A stretch of 64,000 nt of DNA, taken from positions 1,617,682-1,681,681 of the forward strand of contig NC_069127.1 in NCBI RefSeq assembly GCF_026914265.1, written 5' to 3'. The stretch is from Mya arenaria. Its lineage: Eukaryota. Of this stretch, positions 27,319 to 48,700 are shown one piece after another. Each line of letters opens with the position of its first letter. Within the stretch, counting starts at the first letter, position 1. Made by a program: the position numbers and the translations under genes. A model generated the notes under the pieces. The model ran no database searches and was not told where the DNA came from. It was given only the letters and a program-made list of their open reading frames with translations.

Positions 27319-27399
27319 GACGGCATAGTGTCGTTGCGCAAAAACATTAACGTTGGGCATATCTGGGCACACCTGTTGCCAGAAATGATACACTCACAG

Positions 27400-27866: not shown

Positions 27867-28900
27867 TAACTGTTGAATTATGTCCCTTTTTCGACTGAAA
27901 TAAAGAACAGATGAGTGATTGCATTTCTGTGTTGCTGCTCTTGTTAATATGATATCCATAATTAATATTGAAAGGCAGGGATGCCATTGCAAAATGTAAG
28001 AAAGTAACACAGTATGTGGTAAACATTGATTGAACAATTGTTCAATCATCATGATTTCTACCTCAAACTTGAATATGCAAAGATAATGTGTATATAATTA
28101 TGTTCAACAAGATCAAGAGCAACATTTAGTCTTATGTTAATTATATGAATGATATAATAGAATAATTGTGTACCAAAACTTTTTATTATAATCACATTAT
28201 CATTTATTTAATGGTGGAAAATGCCCCAGTTCGGCGAAACATGACTTTTACACATAACACACCAGAGTATCATTACCACTAATATTAACATGAATATAAG
28301 CAGCAATTAACAGGCAAAATAAACAGTTCCCATCAATTACAAATGGCGATTTTTCAGTATAGAGGCGTTTCTTCCCCCATTAAATTGATGTAATGTTTGG
28401 AGCCCACAGATGCACAGAGATCTGCATTATAAACCTGTTGTTAATACAGTCATTGTCTTGTAGTATGTACAACGTGTTCAGCGTTCTATGGGTTTGTATA
28501 TTTACGCTGTGTTTTATGGCAGTTAATGTTTCTCACCATAGTAATTTGATTTACTCAAATACGAGGGTATTTTATTCTTATAGAATACTTGTGTTAGTTT
28601 TGAGGTCTTTGATAGACAATATAGCAGCTCCACGTTTCTACTATTATATTTTGTTTTTATCGAGACCATGTACCTTGAACAAGTCTTTATAAACTATTGT
28701 TGTATTTTCCATATCATGTTTACTACATATTTGTCCCTTTGTATGATGCATATACGAGATGTAGTAGTTTGTAGTTTTCATATTTTCAGGTATATATATT
28801 TCTTTATTTACATGTAGTAAGTTATATTGTACAGATATTCTAAATAAAATTTAACAAAACGCGAGTTTATCCTCATATTAAGTGTGTGTCTGTGAACACC

Positions 28901-29923: not shown

Positions 29924-32900
29924 CTGTGGAGAAATGTAGTAGTTACATGGTTAAATACATTTTAACACAAACATCGTTACGCTATTAACACATCTATGGT
30001 TTTAGTAGTATATCTCGTAGTTTGTATCCAAAACTTCATAATATATATCAAATGTGTCGAGTGCTTTACATGTACACTCAAAGTATAAGGTTTTCATGAA
30101 TACTGTTATAGAGAGGTTGGCAAAACTCGAACAAGTTCATCACTACTCTCATATACGGAGCTACTGAATTAGAAAGTACTTGACAATGGCACCTTTTGTC
30201 CCGAGTGTGCATTAAGGTGGACCTCTTGGCGGATGTGATGCCATTTGTGGTGGTGGAAGCGCCAGGCACCCCGCCCAAGCTCGATGCCCGTGGAGGGCGT
30301 GCAGTGCACGTGCATGTAGGAGGCAGTGCTTGAGTGGTCGTACTTGCCGCACCATGTGTCGAAGGACGGTTCTTGGTTATGGGTCACGTACGTGTACACC
30401 TGAAAAGTTGGAACGCGCCATGTTTTAGGTCCTGTGTTTCTGGGACCGGGGCCTTTCTGGATGGTAAGAATGCGTCTTTTTGACTTAATTGGACATTCAA
30501 AATTTGCGTATAAATTAAAAAAATGACTTATAAAGTAGACAGAAAAAAAACCAGGTGGGATAGCCTTTGTTTCTTAAAGAGAACAACAACTCTTCAATTA
30601 CATATAAAAAGAGAATTGGTTGGCCAACTTTTATTCGTCGGTTTCTTTTTTCAAACTTAAGATTGGGAAATTTATTTTTACAGTTGATTTTTTATATATA
30701 TATATTGGCATTAGGAATTCTGCCCCAAATTGCTCAGAACAAGATTGACGTCTTATTCAAATGACAGTTCATCGAAGGACAAGGCTAGTAGCAAACACAA
30801 CCATTTAGTCATTCATGCTGTTCCATGTTCCATCACCTAATATAACATATCACCTCGCCATCCCCTAGCGGCCGCCACATGAGCCGTGTTGAGAAGCAGG
30901 TGTCCTTTATCCGACCGCCTGAGCAGTCACGGGTGCCGCCCCACAGTCCGGGCAGCTTGCCCCCACGATTCCAGCTAAACGAGTCTGGGAAATACACCTG
31001 CAATTGTGAACATATTTATTTACTGGTGGAATGCTTTGATTTACTTTTAAATACATGTACGCTGTTCATGTACATTGATTTTGTTCGAGTCTTTGTTTCA
31101 CAAACCTAAGACCTAAATTGGTAGGATGGAAGAGCCTTGTGTTCGATTAGCGCTTGTTTGAATAACGGTCGATGCGTTCTTGTATATACTTCAGAAAAGC
31201 ATGATAAGTCAGAAGTCACTGGAATACTCGAGTAACAACTAATGTAGTTAATTCTCGTGGATAGCGTTGATAAATACGGTATGTCGTGGTTGGTCGTGTC
31301 GTGGTTGGTCGCGTACTCTTCCCGTTCTCAAGTGTGTGGATGGTGTGGGTATGTCGTGGTTGGTCGCGTACACTTTCCGTACTCGAGTGTGTGGATGGTG
31401 TGGGTATGTCGTGGTTGGTCGCGTACTCTTCCCGTTCTTGAGTGTGTGGATGGTGTGGGTATGTCGTGGTTGGTCGCGTACTCTTCCCGTTCTTGAGTGT
31501 GTGGATGGTGTGGGTATGTCGTTGTTGGTCGCGTACACTTCCCGTTCTTGAGTGTGTGGATGGTGTGGGTATGTCGTGGTTGGTCGCGTACACTTCCCGT
31601 TCTCGAGTGTGTGGATGGTGTGGGTATGTCGTGGTTGGTCGCGTACACTTCCCGTTCTCCAGTGTGTGGATTGTGTGGGTATGTGGTGGTTGGTCGCGTA
31701 CTCTTCCCGTTCTCGAGTGTGTGGATGGTGTGGGTATGTCGTGGTTGGTCGCGTACACTTCCCCTACTCGAGTGTGTGGATGCTGTGGGTTTGTGGTGGT
31801 TGGTCGCGTTCTCTTCACGTAGTCGAGTGTGTGGATTGAGTGGGTATGTCGTGGTTGGTCGCGTACTCTTCCCATTCTCGAGTATGTGGATGGTGTGGGT
31901 ATGTGGTGGTTGGTCGCGTACACTTCCCGTACTCGAGTGTGTGGATGGTGTGGGTATGTCGTGGTTGGTCGCGTACACTTCCCGTACTCGAGTGTGTGGA
32001 TGGTGTGGGTATGTCGTGGTTGGTCGCGTACACTTCCCGTTCTCGAGTGTGTGGATGGTGTGGGTATGTCGTGGTTGGTCGCGTACTCTTCCCGTTCATG
32101 AGTGTGTGGATGGTTCTCGAGTGTGTGTATGGTGTGGGTATGTGGTGGTTGGTCGCGTACACTTCCCGTTCTCGAGTGTGTGGATGGTGTGGGTATGTCG
32201 TGGTTGGTCGCGTACTCTTCCCGTTCTTGAGTGTGTAGATGGTTCTCGAGTGTGTGGATGGTGTGGGTATGTCGAGGTCGGTCGCGTACTCTTCCCGTTC
32301 TCGAGTGTGTGGATGGTGTGGGTATGTCGAGGTCGGTCGCGTACACTTCCCATTCTCGAGTATGTGGATGGTGTGGGTATGTGGTGGTTGGTCGCGTACT
32401 CTTCCCGTTCTTGAGTGTGTGGATGGTTCTCTAGTGTGTGGATGGTGTGGGTATGCCGAGGTCGGTCGCGTACTCTTCCCGTACTCGAGAATGTGGATGG
32501 TGTGGGTATGTCGTGGTTGGTCGCGAACTCTTCCTTTTCTTGAGTGTGTGGATGGTTCTCGAGTGTGTGGATGGTGTGGGTATGTCGAGGTCGGTCGCGT
32601 ACTCTTCCCGTACTCGAGTGTGTGGATGCTGTGTGTATGTCGAGGTCAGTCGCGTACACTTCCCATTCTCGAGTATGTGGATGGTGTGGGTATGTGGTGG
32701 TTGGTCGCGTACCCTTCCCGTTCTTGAGTGTGTGGATGGTTCTCGAGTGTGTGGATGGTGTGGGTATGTCGAGGTCGGTCGCGTACTCTTCCCGTACTCG
32801 AGTGTGTGGATGGTGTGGGTTTGTGGTGGTTGGTCGCGTACACTTCCCGTTTTCGAGTGTGTGGATGGTGTGGGTATGTCGAGGTCGGTCGCGTACTCTT

Positions 32901-34410
32901 CCCGTTCTCGAGTGTGTGGATGGTGTCGGTATGTCGTGGTTGGTCGCGTACACTTCCCGTACTCGAGTGTGTGGATGGTGTGGGTATGTCGTGGTTGGTC
33001 GCGTACTCTTCCCGTTCTCGAGTATGTGGATGGTGTGGGTATGTGGTGGTTGGTCGCGTACACTTCCCGTTCTCGAGTGTGTGGATGGTGTGGGTATGTC
33101 GTGGTTGGTCGCGTACACTTCCCGTACTCGAGTGAGTGGATGGTGTGGGTATGTCGTGGTTGGTCGCGTACTCTTCCCGTTCTCGAGTGTGTTGATGGTG
33201 TGGGTTTGTGGTGGTTGGTCGCGTTCTCTTCACGTAGTCGAGTGTGTGGATGGTGTGGGTTTGTCGTGGTTGGTCGCGTACACTTCCCGTACTCGAGTGT
33301 GTGGATGGTGTGGGTATGTCGTGGTTGGTCGCGTACTCACCTCGTACTTATGCAACTCGTACACGAATGTGAGGAGGGTGTGTCTATATGGTGGTTTGTC
33401 GTATACTTTCTCCGTTATTGTACAGATGGTGTTGTTATGACGTGGTTGGTCGGTTACTCACCTCGTACTCGAGTGTTAGTGTAGTGTAGGTATGTGAAGC
33501 CACGGAACTCGGCGTGCCGTAGAACTGGGCGCCCCTGTGGCGACCGCTCCCGGAGTAACTACCTGAAACATGTGTTATAAGTATTCATTTGTCAAGGAAA
33601 ATATGACTGTTCGTGACCGAGCTGGGTACTTAAAAGTTACTCAACGATACTGATAGCTAAATAGTAACTCTACGAGACAGGCATAACGACGTTGGACATG
33701 TCTCACGTTACATTAACTTTAAGGTGCATTAATTACTTCCATGAATATACCAGTTGCACCGTACCTTTTGCATAAAAGACCCTGAGGACGTACTGTCCGG
33801 AGTGCTCGGGGTCCTCTGCAAGTGTGAGCGAGTCGTCCGCGCCTATGCCAAACTTCCCCTGGGTGTCCGTCATGTGGAAGCCCTGCTGCAGTACGTCTGT
33901 GATGTCTTTGTTCGACGTCTCGTGGCTCCAGCTCCACAGCGTCGTGCCTTGAATGGTGCAGACAGTTGCCGTCAAAACTGGCTAACGTCGATACCCAAAG
34001 CACATGCATTTACGTTTAACATATCGCTTTAAAGTGATAATCGATTAGTGAGTTGTATTGTGGGTTCCCACGATGAAATGTAATCCTTATTGATACCCAT
34101 TCCAAAAAAAAAATACATCATAAAGGCCTCTCGGGTTCGATATGATGCAAACCTCGGCCGAGTGGTCCCAGGTTCGATACATTGCGGACCTCGGTCTACA
34201 AGTCGGACTTGTTTACCAACATCATAGAAACGATGGATACTGGGACAAAACTTCGTTCCACCGCTTGTAATAAACTTCAAACTAAACCACTATTGAATCG
34301 AATAAGTTAAATGCCACCAACACTGCTGGTTGTAACGCCAATAAGACTAGAAACTTACCATGCCCTCCACGCACCAATACAAACAACAGTATAAATTGAA
34401 ACTGCATCAT
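29702..34410 (-). CDS. secreted polysaccharide-lyase-like protein (resembles the PL14 / heparin-lyase-I-like Polysacc_lyase family; tentative), 6 exons, 312 aa
   Basis: The six exon models below sum to 939 nt with every junction in phase. The deduced protein is MMQFQFILLFVLVRGGH|VLTATVCTIQGTTLWSWSHETSNKDITDVLQQGFHMTDTQGKFGIGADDSLTLAEDPEHSGQYVLRVFYAKG|GSYSGSGRHRGAQFYGTPSSVASHTYTTLTLEYE|VYFPDSFSWNRGGKLPGLWGGTRDCSGGRIKDTCFSTRLMWRPLGDGE|VYTYVTHNQEPSFDTWCGKYDHSSTASYMHVHCTPSTGIELGRGAWRFHHHKWHHIRQEVHLNAHSGQK|GYIKLWVDGHAEVHVTDIIMRDNTGFDIDGLFFSTFFGGGDSSWASPHDTYTYFRNFKITTDTMTPSNSQLVG*. It has an N-terminal signal peptide and a C-terminal FFGG motif. The W/G/H-rich core recalls mollusc PL14 alginate lyases and fungal/bacterial heparin-lyase-like proteins. 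The family call is made from memory, not from a search. Confidence 0.6.
30193..30399 (-). CDS. lyase-like gene exon 5
   Basis: Acceptor aacttttcag|GTG, donor CAAAAG|gtgcca. Peptide VYTYVTHNQEPSFDTWCGKYDHSSTASYMHVHCTPSTGIELGRGAWRFHHHKWHHIRQEVHLNAHSGQK. Confidence 0.7.
30854..30997 (-). CDS. lyase-like gene exon 4
   Basis: Acceptor ttcacaattgcag|GTG, donor GGCGAG|gtgata. Peptide VYFPDSFSWNRGGKLPGLWGGTRDCSGGRIKDTCFSTRLMWRPLGDGE. Confidence 0.7.
31280..33470. repeat. 2.2 kb satellite, 55-bp unit (about 40 units), inside intron 3 of the lyase-like gene
   Basis: The unit is ctcgagtgtgtggatggtgtgggtatgtcgtggttggtcgcgtacacttcccgtt. Two subfamilies are present (gtcgtggttggtcgcg versus gtcgaggtcggtcgcg), and some units carry a 22-bp internal duplication. 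It decays towards exon 3 (33462). All ORFs at 31216..33484 on both strands are artefacts. Confidence 0.95.
33462..33562 (-). CDS. lyase-like gene exon 3
   Basis: Acceptor tgtttcag|GT, perfect donor GAG|gtgagt. Peptide GSYSGSGRHRGAQFYGTPSSVASHTYTTLTLEYE. The downstream intron holds the 2.2 kb 55-bp satellite. Confidence 0.65.
33765..33977 (-). CDS. lyase-like gene exon 2
   Basis: Acceptor ttagccag|TT, donor AAAG|gtacgg. Peptide VLTATVCTIQGTTLWSWSHETSNKDITDVLQQGFHMTDTQGKFGIGADDSLTLAEDPEHSGQYVLRVFYAK. Confidence 0.65.
34359..34410 (-). CDS. lyase-like gene exon 1 (signal peptide MMQFQFILLFVLVRGGH)
   Basis: ATGATG start codons at 34410 and 34407, then a hydrophobic core, then a perfect donor G|gtaagt. 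A TATAAAT motif lies about 45 bp upstream on the minus strand at 34455-34461. Confidence 0.65.
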
Positions 34411-35090: not shown

Positions 35091-36259
35091 TAAAAAAAAA
35101 ATAATAATAATAATTTCGAGGTTCAGTACAAGCCAAACCTATAACCGTTGCAACATGTGTAGCTGTAAAAGAAGTTTAGCAAAATTTACGAAAGATTTCA
35201 TTAGATTTCCAACAATAAAGCCTTTGCAATTTTTAAGAAATGTCTTTATACAAAATGAATGTTTTTGTGTCCAAATAGTCAGTTCTACCCAATCACCAAT
35301 GTTTTGAGGCTTCGCTACTTGGTAGAGAGCTATTTGCATTATTTAACCAGAAAATGATCTTAATCCACTTTTTTACATTATTTTATTGAAAATCTTTCAG
35401 GTTTGGAAAATAATATCAAGAACCTTCAAGACATTCTTGGGTAGGGAGTCTTGGACATTGTGACACAAAACAGTTATTTTGTCGACAGACTTTCCCTAGA
35501 AATTGCAAAATTAATGCTTTTTGTTCCTAGATCTGATCAAATATTCTTACGTAAAACTTGGTCAACCCCTTATTAGCCCAAAATATTTCGCAATTGATGT
35601 TTGGTTTAATGACGAAAAAAATTGTTCATCAAACCATACAAGACATGAATATTTAATACGTTTTAATGTTGGTCTCGCCGACCTACTTTTGCACTATGGA
35701 AAGCCATTAGATATAATATACACATGTATAAAGGACCTATCTCACGAGTGCACGTTAAAACTCAATAAACATTGCATGGCTCTTTGAAATATTTACAGCT
35801 CTATTTATAATGCTGTGAGAGAAAGAAACTGTATATCGAGGCCATTTTTCTCATTGATCAGTAGAACAATTGAATGATAACATGATACATTGTTAACGAT
35901 TGACGGTGTTCTTTGTAGTGCGCATTTAATACATAATAATTTGTAAACACGGAAAAATGGTTAAATTTCAGAATCATTCATGCCATGCTATAATACGCTT
36001 ATCAAGTTTAATAGAAGGATCTCTTAAGTTATATTTGGTGTTCGCACTTATTTGTGGGACAATGAAAATCGTGGAATTACTCCATTTACTATAGCTCCAT
36101 ATTATGTAGAAAAAATGTGACGGTGAATACAATATTTATTTTCATAGAGCATATTTTGTCAGTGTATGTGACTCGGTACAGTCGTTTTTTCATAGATCAC
36201 CCTGCCCTGTTCGCATGTGCGAAAAAACTACGATTGGCAGTTAAGGTCCCGTTTTTCTC

Positions 36260-39200
36260 AATAAGCACCGTTTCCCTTTTCTCCGTTAGCATCGTGTCTC
36301 TATTCTCCGTTAGCACCGTGTCCATTCTCCGTTAGCATCGCGTACCTATTGTCCGTTAGCACAGCACCGTGTCCCTATTGTCCGTAATCACCGTGTCCCT
36401 TTTCTCTGTTAGCACCGTGTCCCTATTGTCCTTAGCAACGTGTCCCTATTGTCCGTTGGCACCGTGCCCCTTTCTCCGTTAGCACCGTGTCCTTATTGTC
36501 CGTTGGCACCGTGACACTATTGTCCGTTAGCACCGTGTTCCTATTGTATGTAGGCACAGTGTCTCTATTGTCCGTTAGCACCATGTCCCTTTCTCTGTTA
36601 GCACCGTGTCCCTATTGTCGGTTGGCACCGTATCTCCATTGTCCGTTAGCACCGTGTTCCTATTGTCCGTAGGCATAGTGTCCCTATTGTCCGTTAGCAC
36701 CGTGTTCCTTTCTCTGTTAGCAACGTGCCCCTATTATCCGTTGGCACAGTGTCTCTATTGTCCGTTGGCACTGGTACCTATTGTCCGTTAGCACGGTGTC
36801 CCTGTTGTCCGATAGCACCGTGTCCCATTCTCCGTCAGCACGGTGTCCCTGTTGTCCGTAAGCACGGTGTCCCTTTCTCCGTTAGTACCGTGTCCCTGTT
36901 GTCCGTTAGCACCGTGTCCCTATTGTCCGTTGGCACCGTGCTGCTATTATCCATTGGAACCGTGCCCCCTATTGTTCGTTGGCACCGTGCCCCCTGTTTT
37001 CCGTTGGCACCGAGCCCCTATTGTACGTAAGAACCGTGTCCCTATTGTCCGTTGGCACTGTTTCCCTATTGTCCTTTAGCACCGTGCCCCTATTGTCCAT
37101 TAGCACCGTGTCCCAATTGTACGTTAGCACCGTGTCTCTATTCTCCGTTAGCACCGTGTTCCTCTTGTACGTTAGCACCGTGTCCCTGTTGTCCGTTAGC
37201 ACCGTGTCCCTGTGTTTCCGTTGGCACCGAGCCCCTATTATCCGTTAACACCGTGTCCCTATTGTCCGTTGGCACCGTGCCGCTATTATCCGTTGGCACC
37301 GAGCCGCTATTATCCGTTTGTACCGTGCCCCTATTGTACGTAAGCACCGTGTCCCTATTGTCCTTTGGCACCGTGACGCTATTATCCGTTGGCGCCGTGC
37401 CCCCTGTTTTCCGTTGGCACCGAGCCCCTATTGTCCGTTGGCTCCGAGACCCTATTGTCCGTTGGCACCGTGCCACTATTATCCGTTGGCACCGAGCCGC
37501 TATTATCCGTTGTCACCGTGCCCCTATTGTCCGTTAGCACCGTGTCCCTATTGTCTTTTGGCACCGTGCCGCTATTATCCGTTGGCACCGTGCCCCCTGT
37601 TTTCCGTTGGCACCGAGCCCCTATTGTCCGTTAGCACCGTGCCGCTATTGTCCGTTGGCACCGTGCCGCTATTGTCCGTTGGCACCGAGCCGCTATTATC
37701 CGTTGGCACCGAGCCGCTATTATCCGTTGTCACCGTGCCCATATTGTCCGTTAGCACCGTGTCCCTATTGTCCTTTGGCACCGTGCCGCTATTATCCGTT
37801 GGCACCGTGTCCCCTGTTTTCCGTTGGCACCGAGCCCCTGTTGTCCGTTAGCACCGTGTCCCTATTGTCCGTTGGCACCATGCCGCTATTATCCGTTGTC
37901 ACCGTGCCCATATTGTCCGTTAGCACCGTGTCCCTATTGTCCTTTGGCACCGTGCCGCTATTATCCCTTGGCACCGTGTCCCCTGTTTTCCGTTGGCACC
38001 GAGCCCCTGTTGTCCGTTAGCACCGTGTCCCTATTGTCCGTTGGCACCATGCCGCTATTATCCGTTGGCACCGAGCCGCTATTATCCGTTGTCACCGTGC
38101 CCCTATTGTACGTTAGCACCGTGTCCCTATTGTCCTTTGGCACCGTGCCGCTATTATCCCTTGGCACCGTGTCCCCTGTTTTCCGTTGGCACCGAGCCCC
38201 TGTTGTCCGTTAGCACCGTGTCCCTATTGTCCGTTGGCACCATGCCGCTATTATCCGTTGGCACCGAGCCGCTATTATCCGTTGTCACCGTGCCCCTATT
38301 GTACGTTAGCACCGTGTCCCTATTGTCCTTTGGCACCGTGCCGTTATTATCCGTTGGCACCGTGCCCCCTGTTTTCCGTTGGCACCGAGCCCCTATTGTC
38401 CGTTAGCACCGTGTCCCTATTGTCCGTTGGCACCGTGCCGCTATTGTCCGTAGGCACCGAGCCGCTATTATCCGTTGGCACCGAGCCGCTATTATCCGTT
38501 GTCACCGTGCCCATATTGTCCGTTAGCACCGTGTCCCTATTGTCCTTTGGCACCGTAACGCTATTATCCGTTGGCACCGTGTCCCCTGTTTTCCGTTGGC
38601 ACCGAGCCCCTGTTGTCCGTTAACACCGTGTCCCTATTGTCCGTTGGCACCGTGCCGCTATTATCCGTTGGCATCGAGCCGCTATTATCCGTCGGCACCG
38701 AGCCGCTATTGTCCGTTGGCAACGTGCCCCCTATTGTCCGTTTGCACCGTGTCCCTATTGTCCTTTGGCACCGTGCCCCCTATTGTCCGTTAGCACCGTG
38801 TCCCTGTTGTCAGTTGGCACTTAGCCCCTATTGTCCGTTAGCATGATGTCCGTTTCTCCGTTAGCACCGTGTCCGTTTCTCCGTTAGCACCGTGCCCCTT
38901 TCTCCGTTGGCACCGTGCCCCTATTGTTCGTTAGCACCGTGTCCCTATTGTCCGTTAGCACCGTGTCCCTATTGTCCGTCGGCACCGTGCCCACTATTGT
39001 TCGTTGGCACCGTGCCCCCTGTTTTCCGTTGGCACCGAGCCCCTGTTGTCCGTTAGAACCGTGTCCCTATTGTCCGTTGGCACTGTGTCCCTATTGTCCT
39101 TTAGCACCGTGCCCTTATTGTCCATTAGTACCGTGTCCCAATTGTCCGTTAGCACCGTGTCTCTATTCTCCGTTAGCACCGTGTTCCTCTTGTCCGTTAG

Positions 39201-40315
39201 CACCGTGTCTCTATTGTCCGTTAGCACCGTGTCCCTATTCTCTGTTAGCACTGTATCCCTATTGTCCGTTGGCACTGTGTCCCTATTGTCCGTTAGCACC
39301 GTGTCCCTATTCTCTGTTAGCACTGTATCCCTATTGTCCGTTGGCACTGTGTCCCTATTGTCCGTTAGCACCGTGTCCCTATTCTCTGTTAGCACCGAAA
39401 GTCTATGTTCGTACGCACCGTGTTCCTATTGTCGGTATGCACAATGTCTCTTTTGTCCGTTAGCACTGTGTCCCTATTTCCGTTAGTACCGTGTCCCTAT
39501 TCCCTGTTAGCACCATGACTCTATTGTCCGTAAGCACCGTGTTCCTATTGTCCGTAGGCACAGTGTCTCTATTGTCCGTTAGCACTGTGTCCCTATTGTT
39601 TGTTAGCACCATTTCCCTATTCTGCGTAAGCACCATGCCCCTCTTATTGGTAAGCACCGTATCCCTATTCTCCGTTAGCACCCTGTCCCTTTTTTCCGTT
39701 CGCACCATATCCCTTTTTCTGTTAGCACCCTGTCCCTTTTTCCGCTAGCACCCTGTCCCTTTTTTCCGTTAGCACCCTGTCACTTTTTTCCGTTAGCACC
39801 CTGTCCCTTTTTTCCGTTAGCACCCTGTCGCTTTTTTCCGTTAGCACCCTGTCCCTTTTTTCTGTTAGCACCCTGTCCCTTTTTTCTGTTAGCACCCTGT
39901 TCCTTTTTTCCATTAGCACCCTGTCCCTTTTATCGTTAGCACCGTGTCGCTTTTTCCATTAGCACTGTGTCTCTTCTCTGTTAGCACCGTGTCCCTATTG
40001 TCTGTTAGCACTGTGTTCCTATTATCCGTTAGCACCGCGTCCCTATTGTCCTTTAGCACCGTTTCCCTATTCTCCGTTAGCACCGTGCCCCTCTTGTTTG
40101 TTAGCACTGTATCCCTATTCTCCGTTACACCCTGTCCCTTTTTTCTGTTCGCACCATATCCCCTTTTCCGTTAGCACCCTGTCACTTTTTTCTGTTAGCA
40201 CCCTGTCCCTTTTTTCCGTTAGCACCGTGTCCCTTTTTTCCGTTAGCACCGTGTCCCTTTTTTCGTTAGCACAATGTCTCTTCTCTGTTAGCACCGTTTC
40301 CCTATTCTGCAGCAC
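36260..40315. repeat. roughly 4 kb satellite of 24-bp units (ccgttagcaccgtgtccctattgt) with a 193-bp (8-unit) higher-order repeat in its centre
   Basis: There are more than 160 units. In the central block (37300-38650) the units alternate among ccgttggcaccgtgccgctattat, ccgttggcaccgagcccctgttgt and ccgttagcaccgtgtccctattgt, giving a 193-bp periodicity that is visible in the ORF-track spacing. The distal part (39700-40310) shifts to 25-bp ccgttagcaccctgtcccttttttc units. All ORFs inside are artefacts. Confidence 0.95.
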
Positions 40316-40844
40316 CCCATCCATTATGAAACCTGTTTTAAACCCTAAACATGTACTTTCATTGGCTATCCTAGATGGCATGATTAGAATTTCATACATT
40401 ACACACAAACATACAGGAAATACATATACACGCCCGCAAATATGCACACAAACACGCACACACACGCGTATTTGTCTAGTTAATCTCACATCAAAACAGA
40501 GCCATGACAAAGTTTAGATTTGCAAGTAAAAATATTGTTTGTTTTAGCATTTTTTATTTTCTAGGCATTAAATAAACATTCCTACAATATATAAATAAAC
40601 ATAAATGTGGGGTACATGAGCTTTTTCTATTGTTTGTAAATGAAAGCATGTATATGGAGCATAGCACAATTATTGTATGTGTATAACATTTCAAACCTAA
40701 AGCAGAGTTCAACAGGGAAACTACATATAAAAAAATACAAGAAAACTTGGTACCAACATGTTCCATGTACAAGAAAACCGTGTAACTAATACTCGAAACA
40801 TGTACGTACATCTATAATTAACTAGAGACTGCTTTTTTGAAAAA

Positions 40845-42105
40845 GCGCATGTCTCCCCCATTGTGTGGTCGTAGGTGAGAAATAATCAATGATGGACATG
40901 AAATTTGTACTTCCTCCCTACCAAGTTTGGTGAACCTAGGTCAAACCATTCTCAAGATATTGAGCGGAAATGTTTTTTACATTGGGGGTCGCCGCGACCT
41001 TGACCTTTGACCTAGTGACCCCAAAAACAATAGGGATCTTCTACACCTCATGACCAACCTCCCTACCAAGTTTGGTGAACCTAGGTCAAACCGTTCTCAA
41101 GATTTTGAGCAGAAATGTTTTTTATATTGGTGGTCGCCGCGACCTTGACCTTTGACCTAGTGACCCCAAAAACAATAGGGATCCTCTACACCTCATGACC
41201 AACCTCCCTACCAAGTTTGGTGAACCTAGGTCAAACCGTTCTCAAGATTTTGAGCAGAAATGTTTTTTATATTGGGGGTCGCCGCGACCTTGACCTTTGA
41301 CCTAGTGACCCAAAAAACAATAGGGATCCTCTACACCTCACGACCAACCTCCCTATCAAGTTTGGTGATCCTAGGTCATGCGGTTTTCCAGTTATCGATC
41401 GGAAACGAACAAAGCATTCTCCTGATATTGCACGGAAATATTTTTTTACATTAGAGGTCACAGCGACGTTGACCTTTGACCTTGTGACCCCCCAAAATAT
41501 AGGAGTTTTCTAAACCTCATGATCAACCTCCCTACCAAGTTTGGTGAACCGAGGTCAAACCATTCTCAAGATATTGAGCGGAAATGTTTTTTACATTGGG
41601 GGTCGCCGCGACCTTGACCTTTGACCTAGTGACCCCAAAAACAATAGGGATCTTCTACACCTCATGACCAACCTCCCTACCACCAAGTTTGGTGAACCTA
41701 GGTCAAACCGTTCTCAAGATATTGAGCGGAAATGTTTTTTACATTGGGGGTCGCCGCGACCTTGACCTTTGACCTAGTGACCCCAAAAACAATAGGGATC
41801 TTCTACACCTCATGACCAACCTCCCTACCAAGTTTGGTGAACCTAGGTCAAACCGTTCTCAAGATTTTGAGCAGAAATGTTTTTATATTGGGGGTCGCCG
41901 CGACCTTGACCTTTGACCTAGTGACCCCAAAAACAATAGGGATCCTCTACACATCACGACCAACCTCCCTACCAAGTTTGGTGATCCTAGGTCATGCGGT
42001 TTTCCAGTTATCGATCGGAAACGAAGTGTGACGTACGGACTGACGGACTACCGGACTGACGGACAGGGCAAAAACAATATGTCTCCCCCAGAGAGGGGGA
42101 GACAT
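40845..42105. mobile_element. composite non-autonomous element: roughly 145-bp satellite-like array (8 units) + ACGG-like microsatellite + G5/C5 palindromic end (Helentron-associated, pearl/MgE/DTC84-like)
   Basis: The left boundary is gcgcatgtctccccca (40845). The array runs 40914-42030 with unit ctccctaccaagtttggtgaacctaggtcaaaccgttctcaagatattgagcggaaatgttttttacattgggggtcgccgcgaccttgacctttgacctagtgaccccaaaaacaatagggatcttctacacctcatgaccaac and is organised as [A A A B]x2. The microsatellite tacggactgacggactaccggactgacggac lies at 42032-42065. The right end is the perfect palindrome atgtctcccccagagagggggagacat (42079-42105). Confidence 0.65.
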
Positions 42106-42509
42106 AATTATGTAGGTAACTTAAATACCATAGTTATACTATCTATGCACGTCATTTGAAAGTTTCATTAGGAACTCTGATTATCCGCAATACTCCTGTG
42201 TTCCTGTTCTATCCTCGGGATTCTACTCATCACATTCCTAATGTCCTGCGTGTAAATAAAGCAGAATTGTGTACAAAAATGCTACCAGGAACAATCACAA
42301 TTTGGCAACCAGTATACATCAGTCCACCTTACATCGAGACTTACAGTATACATCAGTCCACCTTACATCGAGACTTAAACGTTTCTAGGGAAATCCTTAA
42401 ACCCAACAACCTCTTGCATGACATGTACTTTCATATTCGATTGAAGCGTCCAATAATATCACAATATGCTGTTAATAAATTAACCATCTATATATATAAT
42501 GCCACACTG

Positions 42510-42785
42510 CTATGAGACGGCCGTGGATGTGACGGGAATGACAACACCCTGTTTTTGTAGGACCCGTAAAACTTCAAGGATAGAATCCAGTTCCACGCGA
42601 AACCGCTGTATCTCGTTGTTCTTTGTCTCCACGATGTCCCGCCATTTGTCCACCTCACGTTCAGTTTCTATAGACGCTGCCTGTCGAGAGTTGAGTATAA
42701 TGTCCTGCAGCTCTTTCTCACGTTGTGCATGCTTAGTTTCTATCTGCACTATTTTCTCTTGTAAAGACTCAAAATGCCGCATTTC
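42510..42785 (-). CDS. coiled-coil gene terminal exon: EMRHFESLQEKIVQIETKHAQREKELQDIILNSRQAASIETEREVDKWRDIVETKNNEIQRFRVELDSILEVLRVLQKQGVVIPVTSTAVS*
   Basis: Acceptor tctctttgtgtttcgcag|GAA. The stop codon TAG lies at 42510-42512 on the minus strand. Confidence 0.8.
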   Translation of the reverse strand, partial: EMRHFESLQEKIVQIETKHAQREKELQDIILNSRQAASIETEREVDKWRDIVETKNNEIQRFRVELDSILEVLRVLQKQGVVIPVTSTAVS

Positions 42786-45700
42786 CTGCGAAACACAAAG
42801 AGAAAAATATGAATTTGTTACTTGGCTACATACTTTATAATTATGTGCACTTAAGAGGCCAGAATGTGAGATTGTGAGCATCTTCTTAAATATTGTAACC
42901 AATATGTGTCTATAAAAATCATGGTATAGGCTGGATCCTGAGCTATTGGAATGGAACATGCACATGTGTTACTTACTAAACAGAGGACTGTGAAGCCAAC
43001 ACAAATGCTCGTCTGTGGTTTTCAGTTGCGAGGGCATAACTGAACAATGATTAAAGACAGAGTGATGGCCCTTGCTATACATGTGTGTACTGTCTTTCTC
43101 ATGTTGACAGCAATGTTAGCAATATGTCTAGCAAACTCCAGTTGAATAATTCAAACAATTTTTATTGATGGCCATAGTTAAAGTGTTTGCACAACAACCT
43201 CAACAATAGACAGACATGACAATATCGCCAACTTTTAAAAAACAGACAAGATAAACATAGCAATATTTAAAACATGAAATTGATATTGTTTGACATATTT
43301 TTCATTATTTTATTTTTTTTATGTATTTTATACATACACTTACTGGAGCTATGAATAAATAAACACTATAAAGTCTTACCGGAGTGTGAGATTTCTTTGC
43401 CTCTTTGAGGTCCCTGTGTAATGATTTGAGTGTTTCCTCAAGACGTGTCTGTTTGATGCGCAACATAGACGCTGCCTCTGCCTCAACCTCGAGTCGAGCT
43501 TGCTGCTCTCTCAGGTGTTTGATCATCACCTAGACGACAAAGAGGGTAAAAAATGTATGAAATATCCTAATGAACTACTGAAGATATGAATCTAATGCTA
43601 GGAGTATCTGAGGAGCTAGAGTTCTACTTTTATCCAGCTGAGGTAGATCAAGAAATCAGTTAATAAAACCAGGGCAGTAGTATCATCACAATTTACATAA
43701 CAGTCGAAAGAGGATGACCTTCATGAGAATGACTTTACAAATTTCTAGACAAAGAAATAAAAAAAGTTAAAAGAGTATTAGACAAAAAGAATACTTTTAA
43801 CTGACAAACGCTATGCACAAATATGAAACTAATTCTTAAACCACAACCTACCTCCTGAGTATCAACCTTGCTCTGCAATTCCGCCATCCTTGACGTTGAG
43901 TGTTCCAGGGCGTTCTGGGCAAGGAGACGCTTCACTTCCTGTTGGTGGGAGTCTCGCTGCTGTTCAAGACGTTCCTCGTATGCCTCCTGTGTACGGCGGA
44001 GTGCAGCCTCCCCCTCTGCCACAGCACGCTGGATGTCCACCCGACACTGACTAACTTCCAACTGTACCCGCTCCACCTGACAAATCACAAGCATAGTTTG
44101 TATGAACAATGATATCCAATAGTGCCCAGTTTACAATTTGCCCCAATATATTATTTTTTTCATTATATCAAGTATGCAATAAAAACAAAGAAATAAAGCA
44201 TTAATGTCACAATATCAAATGTGTTGATCGAAAGTTCTTAATTCATAATCCTAACTGTTCCCTCAGGCTATTGCTATATAAACACTATGTCTATAAACAC
44301 ACTATGGCTATATACAGGCATACATATCATAGACACTCATAACATATTTTTTGCACAGAATTTCATGTCCTTTCCATTGATATTTTACATCATAATAACA
44401 TTCATACCTTCATTTTGAGGTTATCATTTTCCTGGATGACCTCAGATATGTGTGTGTCCTGGAAGACCTTGGCGTCATATGTCTTCCCCTGTAGTTCAGA
44501 CGCCGAGGGAAGGGACGTAAACTCAGCTGCATCATCTCCCTTGTTACCTCCCCTGGCACCCAGCTTCCCGCGCTTGCCTGACAAATACACAGATAAAGTG
44601 TTATGATCATGCAACAACAAGGTTAGTAATGAATAACCAGCATGGTTGTTAAGAAAACAACTTCTGTAGTAAACAAAATTGACCAATTCAATAAGTACAT
44701 ACAGAAAGCTCACACCAGTGTCTGTTGGATTGTTTTTAGAACTTTAGAACTTAGAATCATTATTCCTTATCGCTCATTTATAAAGTAAATCATCTTTAAA
44801 ATTGGTAAAATCTATAATCTATATACCGGTCATCCGAATTAACCAAACTTTCTGTCATGTTTACCATTATCGCCAGTGATCGCGAGTTGTCTGTCCTTGC
44901 GTAGGCGATCTAGAGATTTCTGAAGGACCTGAATGTCATGGTCCTTACCCTCCACCTCCAACTGGAGAGTCTTAACAAGGGCACGCAACTCTGCCTCCGT
45001 CTCCTTTGTCTGAGACTCTGCTTTAGCTGCAAAGAAAGCCAAATAAACTGAAAATATTTTAACAACAGCAGTCATAGACTGTCATATCCCCAGCAGAATG
45101 AAGGATAGGATCCAGTTCACCTTTTGTTAAAGGATACCAATGAACAATAACAAAGCGCAATTACTCACAAAAAATGCATGCAGCAAAAGTTATGGTTCCT
45201 GTGCACTGCACTTCTCCTCAATTTGATCTATCTGTATGTGAAGTCAATTTCTTGAAGGCTATGTATGAAATTTAACAAAGCCCAATAACTAAAAACTAGA
45301 GCTGTCACAGGAGTGACGAATACCCCCAAATGCCGCCTGGACACATGAATGGCAAACCATTCCTTTGAAAAGAGGCCATAACTCCAAGGTTACTGCACAC
45401 TGCATCTTCTTTTATCATGCATGTCTTGTTTTATTTAAATCTGTTGAGTAATTTAGAAGTTACACTGCTGACAAGAAAAACTCTCCTTTCATGAGTTATC
45501 GTCCGGAAACCGTTTTTCTATTTTTAGTAACAGTGACCTTGACCTTGGCCCCACCAGCCCCAACATCGAACTTGACCTGTACATGTATCTTCTGATGTTA
45601 CACCTGTGTACCAAAAATTGTTCAAATCTGTCTAGCCTTTCATGAGTTATCGTCCGGAAACCGTTTTTCTATTTTTAGTAACAGTGACCTTGACCTTGGC

Positions 45701-48700
45701 CCCACCAGCCCCAATATCAAACTTGACCTGTATCTTCTGATGTTACACCTGTGCACCAAAAATTAATCAAATCTGTCTAGCCTTTCATGAGTTATCGTCT
45801 GGAAACCATGAAAACCGACAGACCGACCGACCGACAGACCGACCGACAAGCTCACTCCTATATACCCCCTCAAACTTCGTTTGTGGGGGTATAAAAATGC
45901 AGCTAGAGTTGGAGTTTTTGTGCACTGCACTTTTCTTCAAAGAAATATACCTGAATATAAAGTTTGAAGTCAATTCCTCAAAGACTTTTCGAGTTATGCT
46001 CCAGACAAAAAAATAAGTATGAAAATTAACAAAGGGCAATAATTTTAAAACAAATGCCAGCAGAATTATGTTTTTTGTGCACTGGACTTATCCTTTATGA
46101 GATCTCTCTCCATATGGAGTTTGAAGTCAATACCTGAAACACTTTTCAAGTTATTCTCCAGACAAGATTGCCTGGATGACTCACTTACCTACCATTACTA
46201 TATCCCCTTTGCCCTTGGCAGGGGATAAAAATATTTATCAGTACCATTATTCAATACATTCATTTGCTTTAGGAATCCCACCCAAGACAGATTCATGCAT
46301 ATCTCCCTAAAATACATAAACATGAGTGGCAATGTTATACAATCTCAAACTCTAAAATGCATATTATGAGAGTCAGTTTTGTCAAACAACAATAAAAACT
46401 AGTTACACATATGGCTAGTCAGACTACAAAAACAGCTAACTTTAGCAAAGCCATGAAATTACCATCAGATTTCTTGGCCTTAGATGCCTCTGCAATGAGC
46501 CTGTCAACCTCAGTCTGAAGGTCGCGGATCTGCTGCTTGTATCTTTCCCGCACGCTCTCCAGCTCACGCTCCAGAGCCACAGAGTGGGTGTGCGGGTGAA
46601 CATGGTCGGCTTGGCCCTGGTAGATGGATAGCTGAATCTCAAGCTCCTTGATACGCTCCTCATACTGCACCTGGAATGTAAGACCCTGGGTTGAATACAT
46701 GGAGATATACAGATACAGGTCACCAAGCAAGATTTCATACTAACTCACATATCGCAGTCCATGGATGAACCCTTTTGCTTTTAGGAATACTCATTAAGCA
46801 AGGAAGAATCAACTGTACTATTTCTGAAAACATACCATTCAGACACGCACTATTCAGATGCAAGCTTGAATACCATGTTATCATATTGGGAAATTTTGCA
46901 TGAGCACAACACCCAGACACACTAAAATTTAACACTGAAATAAAGCTGAATTTAGTTATACATGTGATAAAACAGTACCATTACATTGTTTTATATAACT
47001 ATTATCTAGCCAAGATACCAACATTCCACTCTGACAGGTGGTATCTTTGCTTGACTCTGCCATGCAGTGTCTTCATCTCCTGGGGTTGTATTCAACATTG
47101 TTCTTGTCCTTGTTCTTTGACACGCCTCAGTAATTCCACTCAGTCCATTGGCCAGTTATTTTTACAATCCAATCAAAACACTTGGATTCTAATCCTAAAG
47201 CTGCACGCTCACAGATTGAACGTTTAGACAACTTTTTTACTTTTTGTCTTGGAATGAGCCAATTTTTGCGAAAATCCATGGAAACCAGTTACATAAGACT
47301 GCTGACAAAAAATTAGTTCGCAGATTTTTATATTAAAGTTCAAAAATTGATGTTTTATGCATTTTCCTTAAACTGTTAGTAAAGGTTTAAGCAATAAAAC
47401 ATAATTTTCGAACGGAAATATGAAAATCTAGGATCTGATTTTTTGTCAGCAATTTTATATCATTGGTTTGAAGATATTTACGCAAAAATTTGCTTTTTCC
47501 CAGACAAAAAATAAAAAAAATGTAAAAATGGAATATCTGTGAGAGGCAGCTTTAACATCAAATAAAAATCTAAGGTAGTTATTGAATATAGCCCCAGATC
47601 TAATTGTTAATTTCCATAGTGAAATAAGCTGGCGATCACATACCTTGACACTATGGTACTTCTGTTCCACTCCACGGAGCAAGGTGTTTGTCTCTGTGTC
47701 TTTGCCCTCCAACTCCTTTTCTAGCTTGCTAACCCTGCTCTCCAGTACCTCTGTGTATGCTGTCCGCTGGTTGGCCTGCACATAGTTATTACATGTATTG
47801 GGTTACTATAGATTTGAATGGATAAAGGGGTGGTTTAATGTTTGGTTTTAGGCTTTGTGACTCAAGAAAATTTGTTTTTTTTGTAGGGTAGGCATAAACT
47901 GTAATTATTTACAGTAGCATATAATAATATCCAGAAATTGTTGCAATAATCAGATAGATCTTTGATTTGCGTACAAAATGCAACAATCAACTACATGTTC
48001 AACATGGACGATCAAATTTGCCAAATGGAAGTATGCCCAATGGTATAGTACATCCTCTATCTCTGTTACCCCACACAGCCATGTGGGGACAAAAGGTATG
48101 GCATACCTGGTTGTTGGTGTCGCCTGCAGCTGCCGCAGTCATCATAAGTGATTGGAGGGAGTTTGGATTGCGACGCTTCAGGATTGCCTCCATCTCCTTC
48201 ACCTATACACAAGGACAACAAACAATTAACAAAAATTTTGTGCTAAAATCACAAAGGTACATTTCAGGCTTTTTCTCTCCAATATACTATCATACAGGCC
48301 AATGAAACTTTTATAAATTAATCTTAATGTTGTCCATTAAGTTATAAATTATAATACGTATTTTGAAGACTGTTTAAACCTGTGTTAAACGTTCAGCAAA
48401 TAACACCCTGTGGAAACATTTAGGGTTACCTGTCTCTGAAGGTCCTGTATTTTCTTGGTGTCTCCTGCTCTCTCCCGCGCCCGCACCTTGCTATCCTCCA
48501 CACGCTTACCAGACTGGTAATAGAATAAACATGTTAACACATGAACCCATCTCAATAACATGTGTTTGAACAAATCAAGAATTTCAGTTAAATGTGAAAT
48601 GTCAAAAACTAAATTGAAAGTCTAACATCCAAAATAAATATTGCATAAACTGATTTTTAAAATTGATTTTCTTACTACTCAGAAATATAATATCAATTAT

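Follow-up and report, generated by a model that had tools for sequence, protein, structure and literature searches.

A probable non-autonomous Helentron with a central tandem array downstream of a CEP162-like gene

Introduction

The window analyzed here (the whole stretch of DNA, 64 kb in length) contains a tandem array framed by short inverted repeats, and the question raised by this locus is whether the structure is a mobile element and, if so, of which class and in which orientation. The sequence at 40822-42105, read on the minus strand (1,284 bp, element 1), is very probably an intact non-autonomous Helentron (HINE). Members of this class were first named pearl, MgE or DTC84 'MITEs' in molluscs, and later Cg_HINE (PMC3879986; PMC7492417). 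Element 1 is a known kind of repeat-carrying non-coding rolling-circle transposon, and at most a new family member. An earlier note on this DNA had proposed a composite mobile element resembling the non-autonomous pearl, DTC84 and HINE elements, and the order of the modules, which is as published, bears this out (PMC3879986; PMC7492417; PMC4067079).

Element 1 is located on the minus strand ~400 bp downstream of a CEP162-like gene, the C-terminal exon of which has a best match of 86% amino acid identity. Both HINE sites in the window are non-coding: one is this position 3' of the CEP162-like gene, the other lies within one of its introns.

Limits and modules of the element

On the element strand, element 1 reads TT, the 5' subTIR ATGTCTCCCCC, a 5-nt loop, the IR GGGGGAGACAT, the microsatellite (GTCC/GTCA)n and the array, which is followed by the 3' subTIR GGGGGAGACAT, the 3' palindrome GCTTTTT/AAAAAGC, CTCTAG and TT (Table 1). 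The plus strand accordingly reads AA, CTAGAG, a subterminal ATGTCTCCCCC, the array, (ACGG/ACTG)n, a terminal GGGGGAGACAT and AA. We assign the element to the minus strand because the HINE convention puts the microsatellite in the left flank, beside the 5' subTIR and IR. The span noted earlier, 40845-42105, has the correct right end, but its left end is 23 bp short of the start at 40822, leaving out part of the palindrome (40831-40846) and the terminal CTAGAG (40822-40827).

Table 1. Coordinates of element 1 and its modules, and of element 2, in the window
Feature	Position	Strand	Basis or remark
Flanking AA (TT on the element strand) beyond the 3' terminus	40820..40821	-	read from sequence; target or terminal T
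3' terminus CTCTAG (CTAGAG on the + strand)	40822..40827	-	same hexamer ends element 2 and most sister-family 3' ends
3' palindrome GCTTTTT-ca-AAAAAGC	40831..40846	-	fold; stem position kept across families
3' subTIR GGGGGAGACAT (ATGTCTCCCCC on the + strand)	40849..40859	-	11/11 match to complement of 5' subTIR
Right-flank spacer, array to 3' subTIR	40860..40912	-	absent from array repeats; differs in L121
Central tandem array A1 A2 A3 B4 A5 A6 A7 B8(truncated)	40913..42024	-	TRF, parsing; monomers 144-148 bp, B4 179 bp
Monomer A1	40913-41057
Monomer A2	41058-41202
Monomer A3	41203-41347
B4, long variant (179 bp)	41348..41526	-	divergent monomer 41411-41526 joined to second array-leader copy 41348-41410
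Monomers A5 to A7	up to 41963
Monomer B8	41964-42024		61 nt present
Leader end (GAAGTGTGAC) and imperfect microsatellite	42025..42066	-	(ACGG/ACTG)n on +, (GTCC/GTCA)n on the element strand
Spacer GGCAAAAACAAT, microsatellite to IR	42067..42078	-	identical in L129
IR, inner arm of 5' hairpin, GGGGGAGACAT on the element strand	42079..42089	-
5-nt loop, TCTCT on the element strand	42090..42094	-
5' subTIR ATGTCTCCCCC on the element strand, outermost element sequence	42095..42105	-	L129 similarity stops 2 nt beyond
AA next to the 5' boundary (TT on the element strand)	42106..42107	-	common to L129, flanks unrelated afterwards
Right-flank end of element 1, element orientation: ATGTCTCCCCC..GCGCTTTTTCAAAAAAGCAGTCTCTAG
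Element 2, HINE of a different family	45296..45893	-	TRF, hairpin fold

The most conspicuous feature is the hairpin at 42079-42105, which on the plus strand reads ATGTCTCCCCC-agaga-GGGGGAGACAT: an 11-nt perfect inverted repeat, or 12 bp with the flanking T/A. It had been described as a perfect 27-bp palindrome; the inverted repeat is real, but its arms enclose the 5-nt, non-palindromic loop AGAGA. Folded as single-stranded DNA, the hairpin reaches -13.3 kcal/mol (z = -6.1), and 0/200 shuffles are as good. Only one other perfect hairpin with arms of >=11 and a loop of <=8 is present in the window, while 18/20 Markov resamplings contain none. A third copy of ATGTCTCCCCC is found at 40849-40859; when <=1 mismatch is allowed, the motif has 4 matches against 0.73 expected, a number reached by 0/100 shuffles. 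Nothing but TT precedes the 5' subTIR, and the IR is separated from it by a 5-nt spacer, forming a 12-bp stem. HINEs have a 5' subTIR of 11-15 nt and, in the DINE-1/Cg_HINE type, an IR located 1-12 (up to 22) nt downstream of it; element 1 agrees with both.

At the opposite end, the 3' palindrome extends imperfectly through pairing of GAGAC (40825-40829) with GTCTC (40851-40855). The fold of this region, 40810-40870(-), has an energy of -7.6 kcal/mol and outdoes shuffled sequences by a modest margin only (z = -3.0, 3/200 as good); support for the palindrome comes from its positional conservation across families. It lies 3 nt from the CTCTAG hexamer and thus 9 nt from the 3' end, and the 3' subTIR begins 38 nt from that end. 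The published HINE ranges for these distances are 8-35 nt for the palindrome and 38-60 nt for the 3' subTIR (PMC4067079). Both distances are within range and fit the HINE definition of that study; each end is bordered by at least two T. The right-flank spacer was also considered as a degenerate monomer, a reading we rejected: when the portion that truly belongs to a monomer is set aside, identity in register over 40828-40912 is about random. The spacer is a variable segment, as the related contig L121 differs there.

Element 1 has no coding capacity. The longest ORF in 40822-42105 is 65 aa and repeat-derived, and the database relatives of the element 1 ORFs contain no Pfam domains. Within the 64-kb window there is no Rep/helicase-like long ORF, and no autonomous Helentron is seen there; Rfam (gathering thresholds) and ARAGORN give no matches over the whole window. 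The window is also extremely rich in unrelated tandem arrays.

The tandem array and its internal duplication

The array consists of seven full ~145-bp monomers and one truncated monomer. TRF reports 40913-42024 with a period of 145 (x3.2, 96% matches, score 855) and with a period of 148 (x4.0, score 910), in agreement with the ~145-bp tandem repeats noticed earlier. The [A A A B]x2 organization described at the same time is likewise recovered as a repeat of period 614, in which 40913-41409 and 41527-42025 are 97.4% identical over 500 columns, although only 61 nt of the second B are present. Over these 61 nt B4 and the truncated B8 are 98% identical, whereas B and A monomers show 79-85% identity; B8 is cut off at the start of the microsatellite. 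B4 is an A-like monomer into which 34 nt are inserted, a repeat of the array 'leader'. It marks the junction of a ~614-bp internal duplication, which accounts for the order A A A B / A A A B(truncated). Besides the array leader, the duplicated block takes in three A monomers and a portion of the divergent monomer. We also considered B4 as a fixed position-specific variant, as in DTC84; this was rejected, since the fourth monomer from the leader in contig L125 is A-type.

The ACGG-type microsatellite of the earlier note is present as well, though short and imperfect: ~42031-42066 reads ACGT ACGG ACTG ACGG ACTA CCGG ACTG ACGG ACAG, which TRF reports as ACGGACTG x3.8. Left flanks of Cg_HINE carry GTCY/GTCC/GTCK microsatellites (PMC7492417).

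Other copies of the same family

A BLAST search of the window with the left-flank and right-flank modules of element 1 found no further copies in 64 kb. Three short contigs of the same family were recovered from elsewhere (L121, L125 and L129). L129, an ENA contig, matches element 1 at all 41 nt of the end, GGCAAAAACAATATGTCTCCCCCAGAGAGGGGGAGACATAA, beyond which its flank is unrelated; it carries (ACGG ACAG)n in the place of the element 1 microsatellite and keeps the order of modules. L121 has the same 3' module, with the hairpin and the adjoining subTIR motif ATGTCTCCCCC, while its palindrome reads CTTTTgagAAAAG; its monomers are 77-96% identical to those of element 1. L125 shares the array leader and the junction. 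Similar termini, whose absence elsewhere would have spoken against a mobile element, are therefore found in both L129 and L121. Element 1 appears from these comparisons to be a member of a dispersed multi-copy family with common termini and different flanks.

Comparison among copies also suggests where the exact boundaries lie within the T runs, and that no target-site duplication (TSD) was formed. In the orthologous loci of relatives (L122-L124), exons alone align to the window, with 73-78% nucleotide identity, and the loci are too diverged to provide an empty site. Viral contigs scanned for the monomer core and the hairpin gave 0 matches, and sequence strings searched in the literature returned only unrelated primer matches or nothing. 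A scan of genome contigs with AAAAGCGCATGTCTCCCCC returned 3 bacterial matches, which we discarded: with both strands of 596 Gb scanned, chance alone should give ~4 for a 19-mer.

Related families and co-varying termini

A larger set of copies comes from a sister family in JGI metagenome Ga0224511/10; the 120 metagenome loci examined (L001-L120) were selected with the half-site motif AGGTCAAAGGTCA. In 61 metagenome loci, 167 monomers show 69-79% identity to those of element 1. In BLAST searches of all 120 loci with the element 1 flank modules, the microsatellite is the sole match, so the sister family has different termini. We identified 44 5' ends, 37 3' ends (anchored allowing <=4 mismatches across the palindrome-CTCTAG block) and 16 complete copies, with 365-1376 bp between the subTIRs and with unique flanks. 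The 5' ends read T5, then ATACGCCCGAAGT-GAA-ACTTCGGACGTAT-...(TCCG/TCTG)n, and the 3' ends read CTTCGGGCGTAT-AAT-GCTCCGacatGCGGAGC-TCTAG, then TT. Unique flanks start directly after CTCTAG; the two bases that follow the hexamer are T in 37/37 and 36/37 copies. On the 5' side a T run occupies positions -1 to -5 in 39-44/44 copies, and a run of ~5 T is present on one side in 29/44. The sister family thus combines homologous monomers and the architecture of element 1 with different, but internally matching, subTIR/IR/subTIR triads.

The second HINE in the window, element 2, belongs to yet another family. The 5' part on its element strand consists of TTTTT, TATACCCCC, a 15-nt loop, GGGGGTATA and (GTCG/GTCT)n at 45814-45847; the array at 45485-45807 contains 151-bp monomers (x2.2), and the 3' part is composed of GGGGGTAT (45320-45327), GTCAC-tcct-GTGAC (45304-45317), CTCTAG (45296-45301) and TTTTT. 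For its 5' hairpin region, folded as the 66-nt stretch 45845-45910, the MFE is -12.5 kcal/mol (z = -4.4); its 3' palindrome is not significant by itself (z = -0.6). The element 2 monomer has a AAGGTCAAGGTC core and a TTTCCG..GATAACT segment in common with element 1.

L129, element 2 and the sister family all keep the order of 5' subTIR/IR, microsatellite and array. Across the three families (element 1, element 2 and sister), the 5' subTIR, IR and 3' subTIR vary jointly, the 3' stem retains its pairing, and CTCTAG and TT are constant. The position of the 3' stem is kept but its sequence differs: GTCAC/GTGAC in element 2 and GCTCCG/CGGAGC in the sister family (37 copies). Joint change of the termini around a constant CTCTAG and TT is the pattern expected for cis-acting termini.

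A block of half-sites in the monomers

Every monomer of element 1 contains four tandem nuclear-receptor-type half-sites, GGGTCA-ct-AGGTCA-a-AGGTCA-AGGTCG (DR2/DR1/DR0). The motif AGGTCAAAGGTCA occurs 7 times in the window, always in element 1, against 0.11 expected. The block is kept in sister-family monomers that are otherwise ~75% identical, but loci L001-L120 were chosen by that very motif; it is also kept in L129, found independently of the motif, and has a reduced form in element 2. Independent observations of the block are limited to element 2, L121/L125 and L129. This retention could reflect selection on the block, either as a putative host nuclear-receptor binding site or as a cis site for the Helentron machinery, although we regard such selection as unlikely. 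If receptors did bind, HINEs would disperse ready-made multi-site response-element clusters beside genes, here 3' of the CEP162-like gene and inside it.

Proposed mechanism and alternative explanations

By analogy with the Helentron literature, an autonomous Helentron would supply the Rep/helicase(/AP-endonuclease) protein that mobilizes element 1 in trans. Rolling-circle transposition through a single-strand intermediate would be initiated and terminated at cis signals, namely the terminal hairpins and subTIRs, with insertion into T-rich (TT) sites and no target-site duplication. The internal array would change independently, by unequal exchange or slippage.

Several features could also be read as those of a cut-and-paste MITE, whose DDE transposase binds the 11-bp inverted repeats and whose AA at both ends is a 2-bp TSD. 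The 11-nt perfect inverted repeats near both ends and the AA on both sides of the plus strand agree with this reading, as does the published description of DTC84 and pearl (PMC3879986). The ends, however, are asymmetric: one repeat is terminal, and the other lies 27 nt inside, behind the palindrome and the conserved CTCTAG. In addition, the flanking dinucleotide is always T/T rather than a variable duplicated target, and the literature has since moved the class itself to Helentrons, autonomous partners with common termini being known in other taxa (PMC4067079; PMC7492417). A MITE origin is consequently quite improbable. The proposal that the 27-nt hairpin is a Helitron-type 3' hairpin implies a canonical non-autonomous Helitron on the plus strand, with 5'-TC/CTRR-3' termini and insertion between A and T. 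The hairpin is indeed close to the right end, and a CTRR-type CTAG is present at one terminus; the canonical 3' arrangement (CTRR and a 16-20-nt palindrome ~11 nt upstream) even occurs, as CTAG and a 16-nt palindrome, at the left plus-strand end. This CTAG, which falls outside the span noted earlier, and its small hairpin nevertheless differ from the 27-nt hairpin in both end and strand. No CTRR follows the latter, because the element ends directly at GAGACAT, then AA. The hairpin instead corresponds to the 5' subTIR and IR on the minus strand, so that the two ends had been reversed. The 5'-TC is missing in both orientations of element 1, element 2 and the sister family, the 5' ends being TT, ATGTCT (element 1), TTTTT, TATACC (element 2) and TTTTT, ATACGCC (sister family). 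Nor does the anticipated A/T insertion site hold: on the element strand TT borders each end, not A 5' and T 3'. SubTIRs and an IR are features of Helentron/Helitron2 and not of canonical Helitrons (PMC4067079). A canonical Helitron, already contradicted by the L129 boundary and the sister-family ends, is highly improbable.

The remaining explanation is that nothing here is mobile, the structure being a satellite or segmental tandem array of purely local nature whose inverted repeats arose by chance. It draws on the abundance of unrelated tandem arrays in the window and on the flank modules having no second copy inside 64 kb. Yet the same termini are present at other loci with different flanks (L129, L121), equivalent modules frame homologous arrays in dozens of dispersed copies, and chance falls far short of explaining the hairpin and the triple 11-mer; an immobile satellite is scarcely credible.

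Under the preferred assignment to non-autonomous Helentrons, 40822-42105 (minus) is to be masked as HINE/Helentron-N and 45296-45893 as a second HINE, and not as a satellite or a novel element. The three families indicate that cis-termini of Helentrons co-vary, with the 5' subTIR, IR and 3' subTIR shifting together between families and CTCTAG and TT retained, and that one and the same family of central repeats is found, in different hosts, within different terminal 'cassettes'. Array expansion within one copy by higher-order duplication is the first step assumed in models of TE-to-satellite conversion, and it is represented here by a single event. This one local 614-bp duplication is also the sole evidence for the putative role as a source locus for satellite seeding raised in the earlier note. 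Co-varying termini, shared repeats and array expansion are none of them new in kind.

Comparison with known systems

The closest architecture is that of Cg_HINE from Crassostrea gigas (Vojvoda Zeljko et al. 2020, PMC7492417), present in Repbase as Helitron-N*_CGi. The match with element 1 is one of architecture; the supplement text of PMC7492417 does not contain the monomer core strings of element 1. Both have the same modules: an 11-12-nt 5' subTIR, an IR after a 1-12-nt gap, a GTCY/GTCC/GTCK microsatellite, tandem repeats of ~138-181 bp in Cg_HINE, a 3' subTIR, a palindrome and, probably in element 1 too, TT/T-rich insertion, all without coding sequence (PMC7492417). The 145-bp monomer of element 1 is at the short end of the Cg_HINE range, near the 147 bp of CL6, and two consecutive arrays are found in Cg_HINE_10_13 and Cg_HINE_11_12 too (PMC7492417). 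Like the HINEs described here, Cg_HINE also sit in non-coding parts of genes (PMC7492417).

DTC84 of Donax trunculus, pearl CvA/CvE/CvG of Crassostrea virginica and MgE of Mytilus were compared with element 1 by description (PMC3879986). They share with it the succession of L, core repeats, (ACGG/ACGA or ACTG)n and R, an inverted motif of 11 bp in both flanks (terminal in one, subterminal in the other), AA at both ends, ordered repeat variants and a constant array-microsatellite junction (PMC3879986). They differ in being described as MITEs with a TSD (PMC3879986), whereas the evidence from element 1 favors a Helentron; the landmark of the DTC84 core repeats, the palindrome TTGTCCGGACAA, is absent from element 1. 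The Cg170/BIV160 satellites, compared by length alone, have units of ~160-170 bp against the 145-bp monomer. Outside of molluscs, DINE-1 and HINE-Mo (Drosophila and a mite; Thomas et al. 2014, PMC4067079) show the same subTIRs, IR adjoining the 5' subTIR, microsatellite, central repeats, 3' stem-loop and variable-length boundary T runs with, probably in element 1 as well, no TSD, while the 'core' sequence of DINE-1 is missing from element 1. The 3' end of element 1 is the conserved CTCTAG; in PMC4067079 the Phytophthora proto-Helentron (5' TT, 3' CTAG) is the sole element mentioned with an end of this kind.

Structure of the element

Element 1, the repeat-carrying element under study, is an intact HINE (non-autonomous Helentron) whose central array is internally duplicated. 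The features that an earlier note had listed for 40845-42105 are all present in the sequence, and the composite mobile-element class it proposed (pearl/HINE type) is right: the modules match the published non-autonomous Helentron structure one by one. The right end of that span holds, but the left end lies further out, giving 1,284 bp, and the orientation implied earlier is the wrong one, as the element reads on the minus strand. The CTAG terminus, which is CTRR-like, and the 3' hairpin fall partly outside the earlier coordinates; the short palindrome adjoins the former start on its left side, and the hexamer CTAGAG lies further left. The 27-nt sequence at 42079-42105 had been read as a perfect palindrome and a candidate 3' hairpin. 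It does hold an 11-nt perfect inverted repeat, but with a 5-nt loop inside (stem 12 bp including a flanking T/A pair), and it represents the 5' subterminal inverted repeat (subTIR) with its adjacent inverted copy (IR), the real 3' hairpin and terminus being at the opposite end. The structure folds at -13.3 kcal/mol (z = -6.1), and none of 200 shuffles folds as well. Only two perfect hairpins of this kind occur in the 64 kb; Markov resampling produced none in 18 of 20 runs. Apart from this one, a single perfect inverted repeat with arms of 11 nt or more exists in the window, a 22-nt palindrome at 28027-28048. Element 1 has no coding capacity (ORFs ≤65 aa).

Features of the window; element layouts are read on the element strand
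Feature	Position	Strand	Details
Element 1	40822-42105	minus	TT, 5' subTIR ATGTCTCCCCC, loop TCTCT, IR GGGGGAGACAT, 12-nt spacer, microsatellite (GTCC/GTCA)n, leader, 145-bp array, 53-nt spacer, 3' subTIR GGGGGAGACAT, GCG, 3' palindrome CTTTTT-ca-AAAAAG, CAGT, terminus CTCTAG, TT
Hexamer	40822-40827		CTAGAG, AA before it
Short palindrome	40831-40846		GCTTTTT-tg-AAAAAGC
Third ATGTCTCCCCC copy	40849-40859		
TRF array	40913-41378		period 145, 3.2 copies, 96% matches
TRF array	41410-41994		period 148, 4.0 copies
Half-site blocks	40995-41927		GGGTCA-ct-AGGTCA-a-AGGTCA-AGGTCG
Microsatellite	~42031-42066		imperfect (ACGG/ACTG)n
Element 2	45296-45893	minus	TTTTT, 5' subTIR TATACCCCC, 15-nt loop, IR GGGGGTATA, microsatellite (GTCG/GTCT)n, 151-bp monomers x2.2, 3' subTIR GGGGGTAT, hairpin GTCAC-tcct-GTGAC, terminus CTCTAG, TTTTT
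CEP162-like last exon	42510-42788	minus	C-terminal; matches PF27882
Other exon-like segments	43375-43531, 43839-43968, 44395-44480, 46422-46739, 47458-47802, 52763-53116	minus	
Perfect palindrome	28027-28048		TGATTGAACAATTGTTCAATCA
Minisatellite	36253-40308		24-bp unit TTTTCTCCGTTAGCACCGTGTCCC, ~169 copies, 48/72-bp higher order
Unrelated large tandem array	7707-8277		unit 23 bp
Unrelated large tandem array	8411-9283		unit 51 bp
Unrelated large tandem array	13921-14966		unit 40 bp
Unrelated large tandem array	27396-27864		unit 37 bp
Unrelated large tandem array	31297-33338		unit 55/165 bp
tRNA-like repeat	56212-56414	minus	69-bp unit x2.9, GGTTCGATCCAC T-arm-like motif

TRF reports two overlapping arrays in element 1, which parsing by hand and with MAFFT orders, from the left, as A1 A2 A3 B4 A5 A6 A7 B8t. 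The A units measure 144-148 bp and B4 179 bp; B8t has only 61 nt because the microsatellite begins there. Self-BLAST pairs 40913-41409 with 41527-42025 (97.4% identity, 500 columns), and the higher-order period is 614 bp. There are two near-identical A types, A1/A5/A6 (99%) and A2/A3/A7 (98-99%); B4 and B8t share 98% identity over 61 nt, and B units 79-85% with A. What sets B4 apart from A is a 34-nt insertion, a second copy of the array leader (the sequence adjoining the microsatellite), and the B unit therefore marks the junction of a duplicated block composed of the leader, three A units and a portion of a divergent monomer. L125, an ENA metagenome contig with an independent copy of the family, has an A-type unit as its fourth monomer counted from the leader; the twofold AAAB order described earlier is thus present in element 1 but belongs to this copy and not to the family. 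The array evolves apart from the rest of the element, through unequal exchange or slippage, and the 614-bp duplication is one such event.

Every monomer carries four direct nuclear-receptor-type half-sites in DR2/DR1/DR0 spacing; AGGTCA-n-AGGTCA is a DR1 response element. The motif AGGTCAAAGGTCA occurs seven times in the window, always in element 1 (0.11 expected). Of the 79 AGGTCA/TGACCT hexamers in the window, 23 fall in element 1. The block recurs in ENA contig L129 (18-50) and, reduced, in element 2.

Copies and related families

Contigs of the same family were found with repeat-derived ORFs as protein queries, after which the encoding contigs were retrieved. L129 (ERZ27296412) reads ...CGGAAACGAAGTGTGAC-(AGACGGAC)n-AAGGCAAAAACAAT-ATGTCTCCCCC-AGAGA-GGGGGAGACAT-AA; its final 41 nt match window 42067-42107 exactly, and the likeness ends right after ...CATAA, where an unrelated flank begins. 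A further ENA contig, L121 (ERZ27267617), starts with TGCTTTTgagAAAAGCGC-ATGTCTCCCCC, the 3' palindrome and 3' subTIR of element 1, followed by a different spacer and by monomers 77-96% identical to those of the window by register (best 96%). L125 (ERZ27299095) holds 3.5 monomers that closely resemble those of the window and run up to the same leader. Directly after this leader, at the contig end (567-618), stands the Illumina adapter AGATCGGAAGAGCACACGTCTGAACTCCAGTCAC, an assembly artefact in the ENA deposit. Given these copies, with similar termini in L129 (the 41-nt end) and L121 (the 3' module), the unique local satellite that the earlier note had set against its reading does not apply. 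Element 1 has dispersed with conserved ends and T/T flanks and without coding capacity. Self-BLAST of the 64 kb finds no second copy of its flanks inside the window.

Searched once with the monomer core, JGI metagenome contigs yielded 120 loci; these were picked with the half-site motif and so provide no independent evidence for it. Sixty-one of them share the 145-bp period, with monomers 69-79% identical to those of the window; most come from one host-associated sample set (Ga0224511/Ga0224510). The sister HINE family among these loci has 44 recognisable 5' ends, each a unique flank and then a T run (positions -1 to -5 are T in 39-44 of the 44, and 29 copies have exactly five), continuing as ATACGCCCGAAGT-GAA-ACTTCGGACGTAT-TATGGTATGGCG-(TCCG/TCTG)n. 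The 37 recognisable 3' ends read ...CTTCGGGCGTAT-AAT-GCTCCG-acat-GCGGAGC-TCTAG, followed by T (37/37), T (36/37) and unrelated sequence. Sixteen copies are complete, with 365-1376 bp between subTIRs. Because the sister-family ends stop there, sequence comparison places the putative 3' boundary for the whole class at the CTCTAG|TT junction, the same at elements 1 and 2. In three independent sister-family copies (L029, L046, L049) the (TCCG)n tract is broken by an insert of ~75 bp whose ends, …CACTTGTTGGGTAC…GTACCCAACAAATG…, are inverted; this could be a small element nested there or a module specific to one subfamily. Further host-associated metagenomes, outside Ga0224511/Ga0224510, contain the monomer core as well. 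Among their loci it adjoins GTCN-type microsatellites in L037, L060 and L113 and forms 143-145-bp arrays in L041 and L067; the repeat family therefore spans several hosts.

Element 2, 3.2 kb from element 1, has the same anatomy with other sequences and represents a different family. In each of the three families the 5' subTIR, IR and 3' subTIR match one another, and they differ from family to family; the 3' stem is kept while its sequence changes. Such co-variation is as would be expected of cis-acting termini. By extension from PMC4067079, a Helentron Rep/helicase(/endonuclease) would mobilise element 1 in trans through a single-strand, rolling-circle-type intermediate, terminal hairpins and subTIRs would guide initiation and termination, and insertion would occur into TT with no duplication. 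No autonomous Helentron partner lies within the 64-kb window.

Genomic setting

A CEP162/QN1-like gene is represented on the minus strand, between 42510 and ~61340, by exon-like coiled-coil ORFs. For its last exon the nearest public homologue shows only 86% amino acid (75-78% nucleotide) identity, and in orthologous CEP162 loci of relatives the exons alone align with the window (73-78% nucleotide identity). Element 1 shares the strand of the CEP162-like gene and lies downstream of it, ~400 bp past the stop codon (42510-42512). Element 2 falls between exon-like segments at ~44.4 kb and 46.4 kb and is therefore probably intronic. Minisatellites are unusually abundant in the window; a 4-kb array of 24-bp units ends ~500 bp from element 1. 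The 69-bp repeat at 56212-56414 has a tRNA-derived look, drew no call from ARAGORN or Rfam, and may be a tandemised tRNA-SINE fragment.

Comparison with known elements

Element 1 is at most a new family member of a well-described class, known also from sea urchin, insects and mites (PMC3879986; PMC4067079). The original HINE/DINE-1 definition places a subTIR near the 5' end, a palindrome 8-35 nt before the 3' end and two or more T on either side (PMC4067079), all found in element 1. The older pearl/DTC84 layout, L, core repeats, (ACGG)n and R, with AA at both ends and an inverted motif of 11 bp whose copy in L is subterminal and whose copy in R is terminal (PMC3879986), fits equally when element 1 is read on the plus strand. 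The likeness to Cg_HINE of the Pacific oyster holds module for module: its left flank begins with a 5' subTIR of 11-12 nt, from which a gap of 1-12 nt separates the IR, and also carries a GTCY/GTCC/GTCK microsatellite; next come tandem repeats of ~138-181 bp, then a right flank of 3' subTIR and palindrome (PMC7492417). For Cg_HINE, TT is reported as the preferred insertion site, without target site duplication (PMC7492417). Cg_HINEs are reported in non-coding parts of genes (PMC7492417), and the position of element 1 downstream of the CEP162-like gene and that of element 2 in a probable intron fit this.
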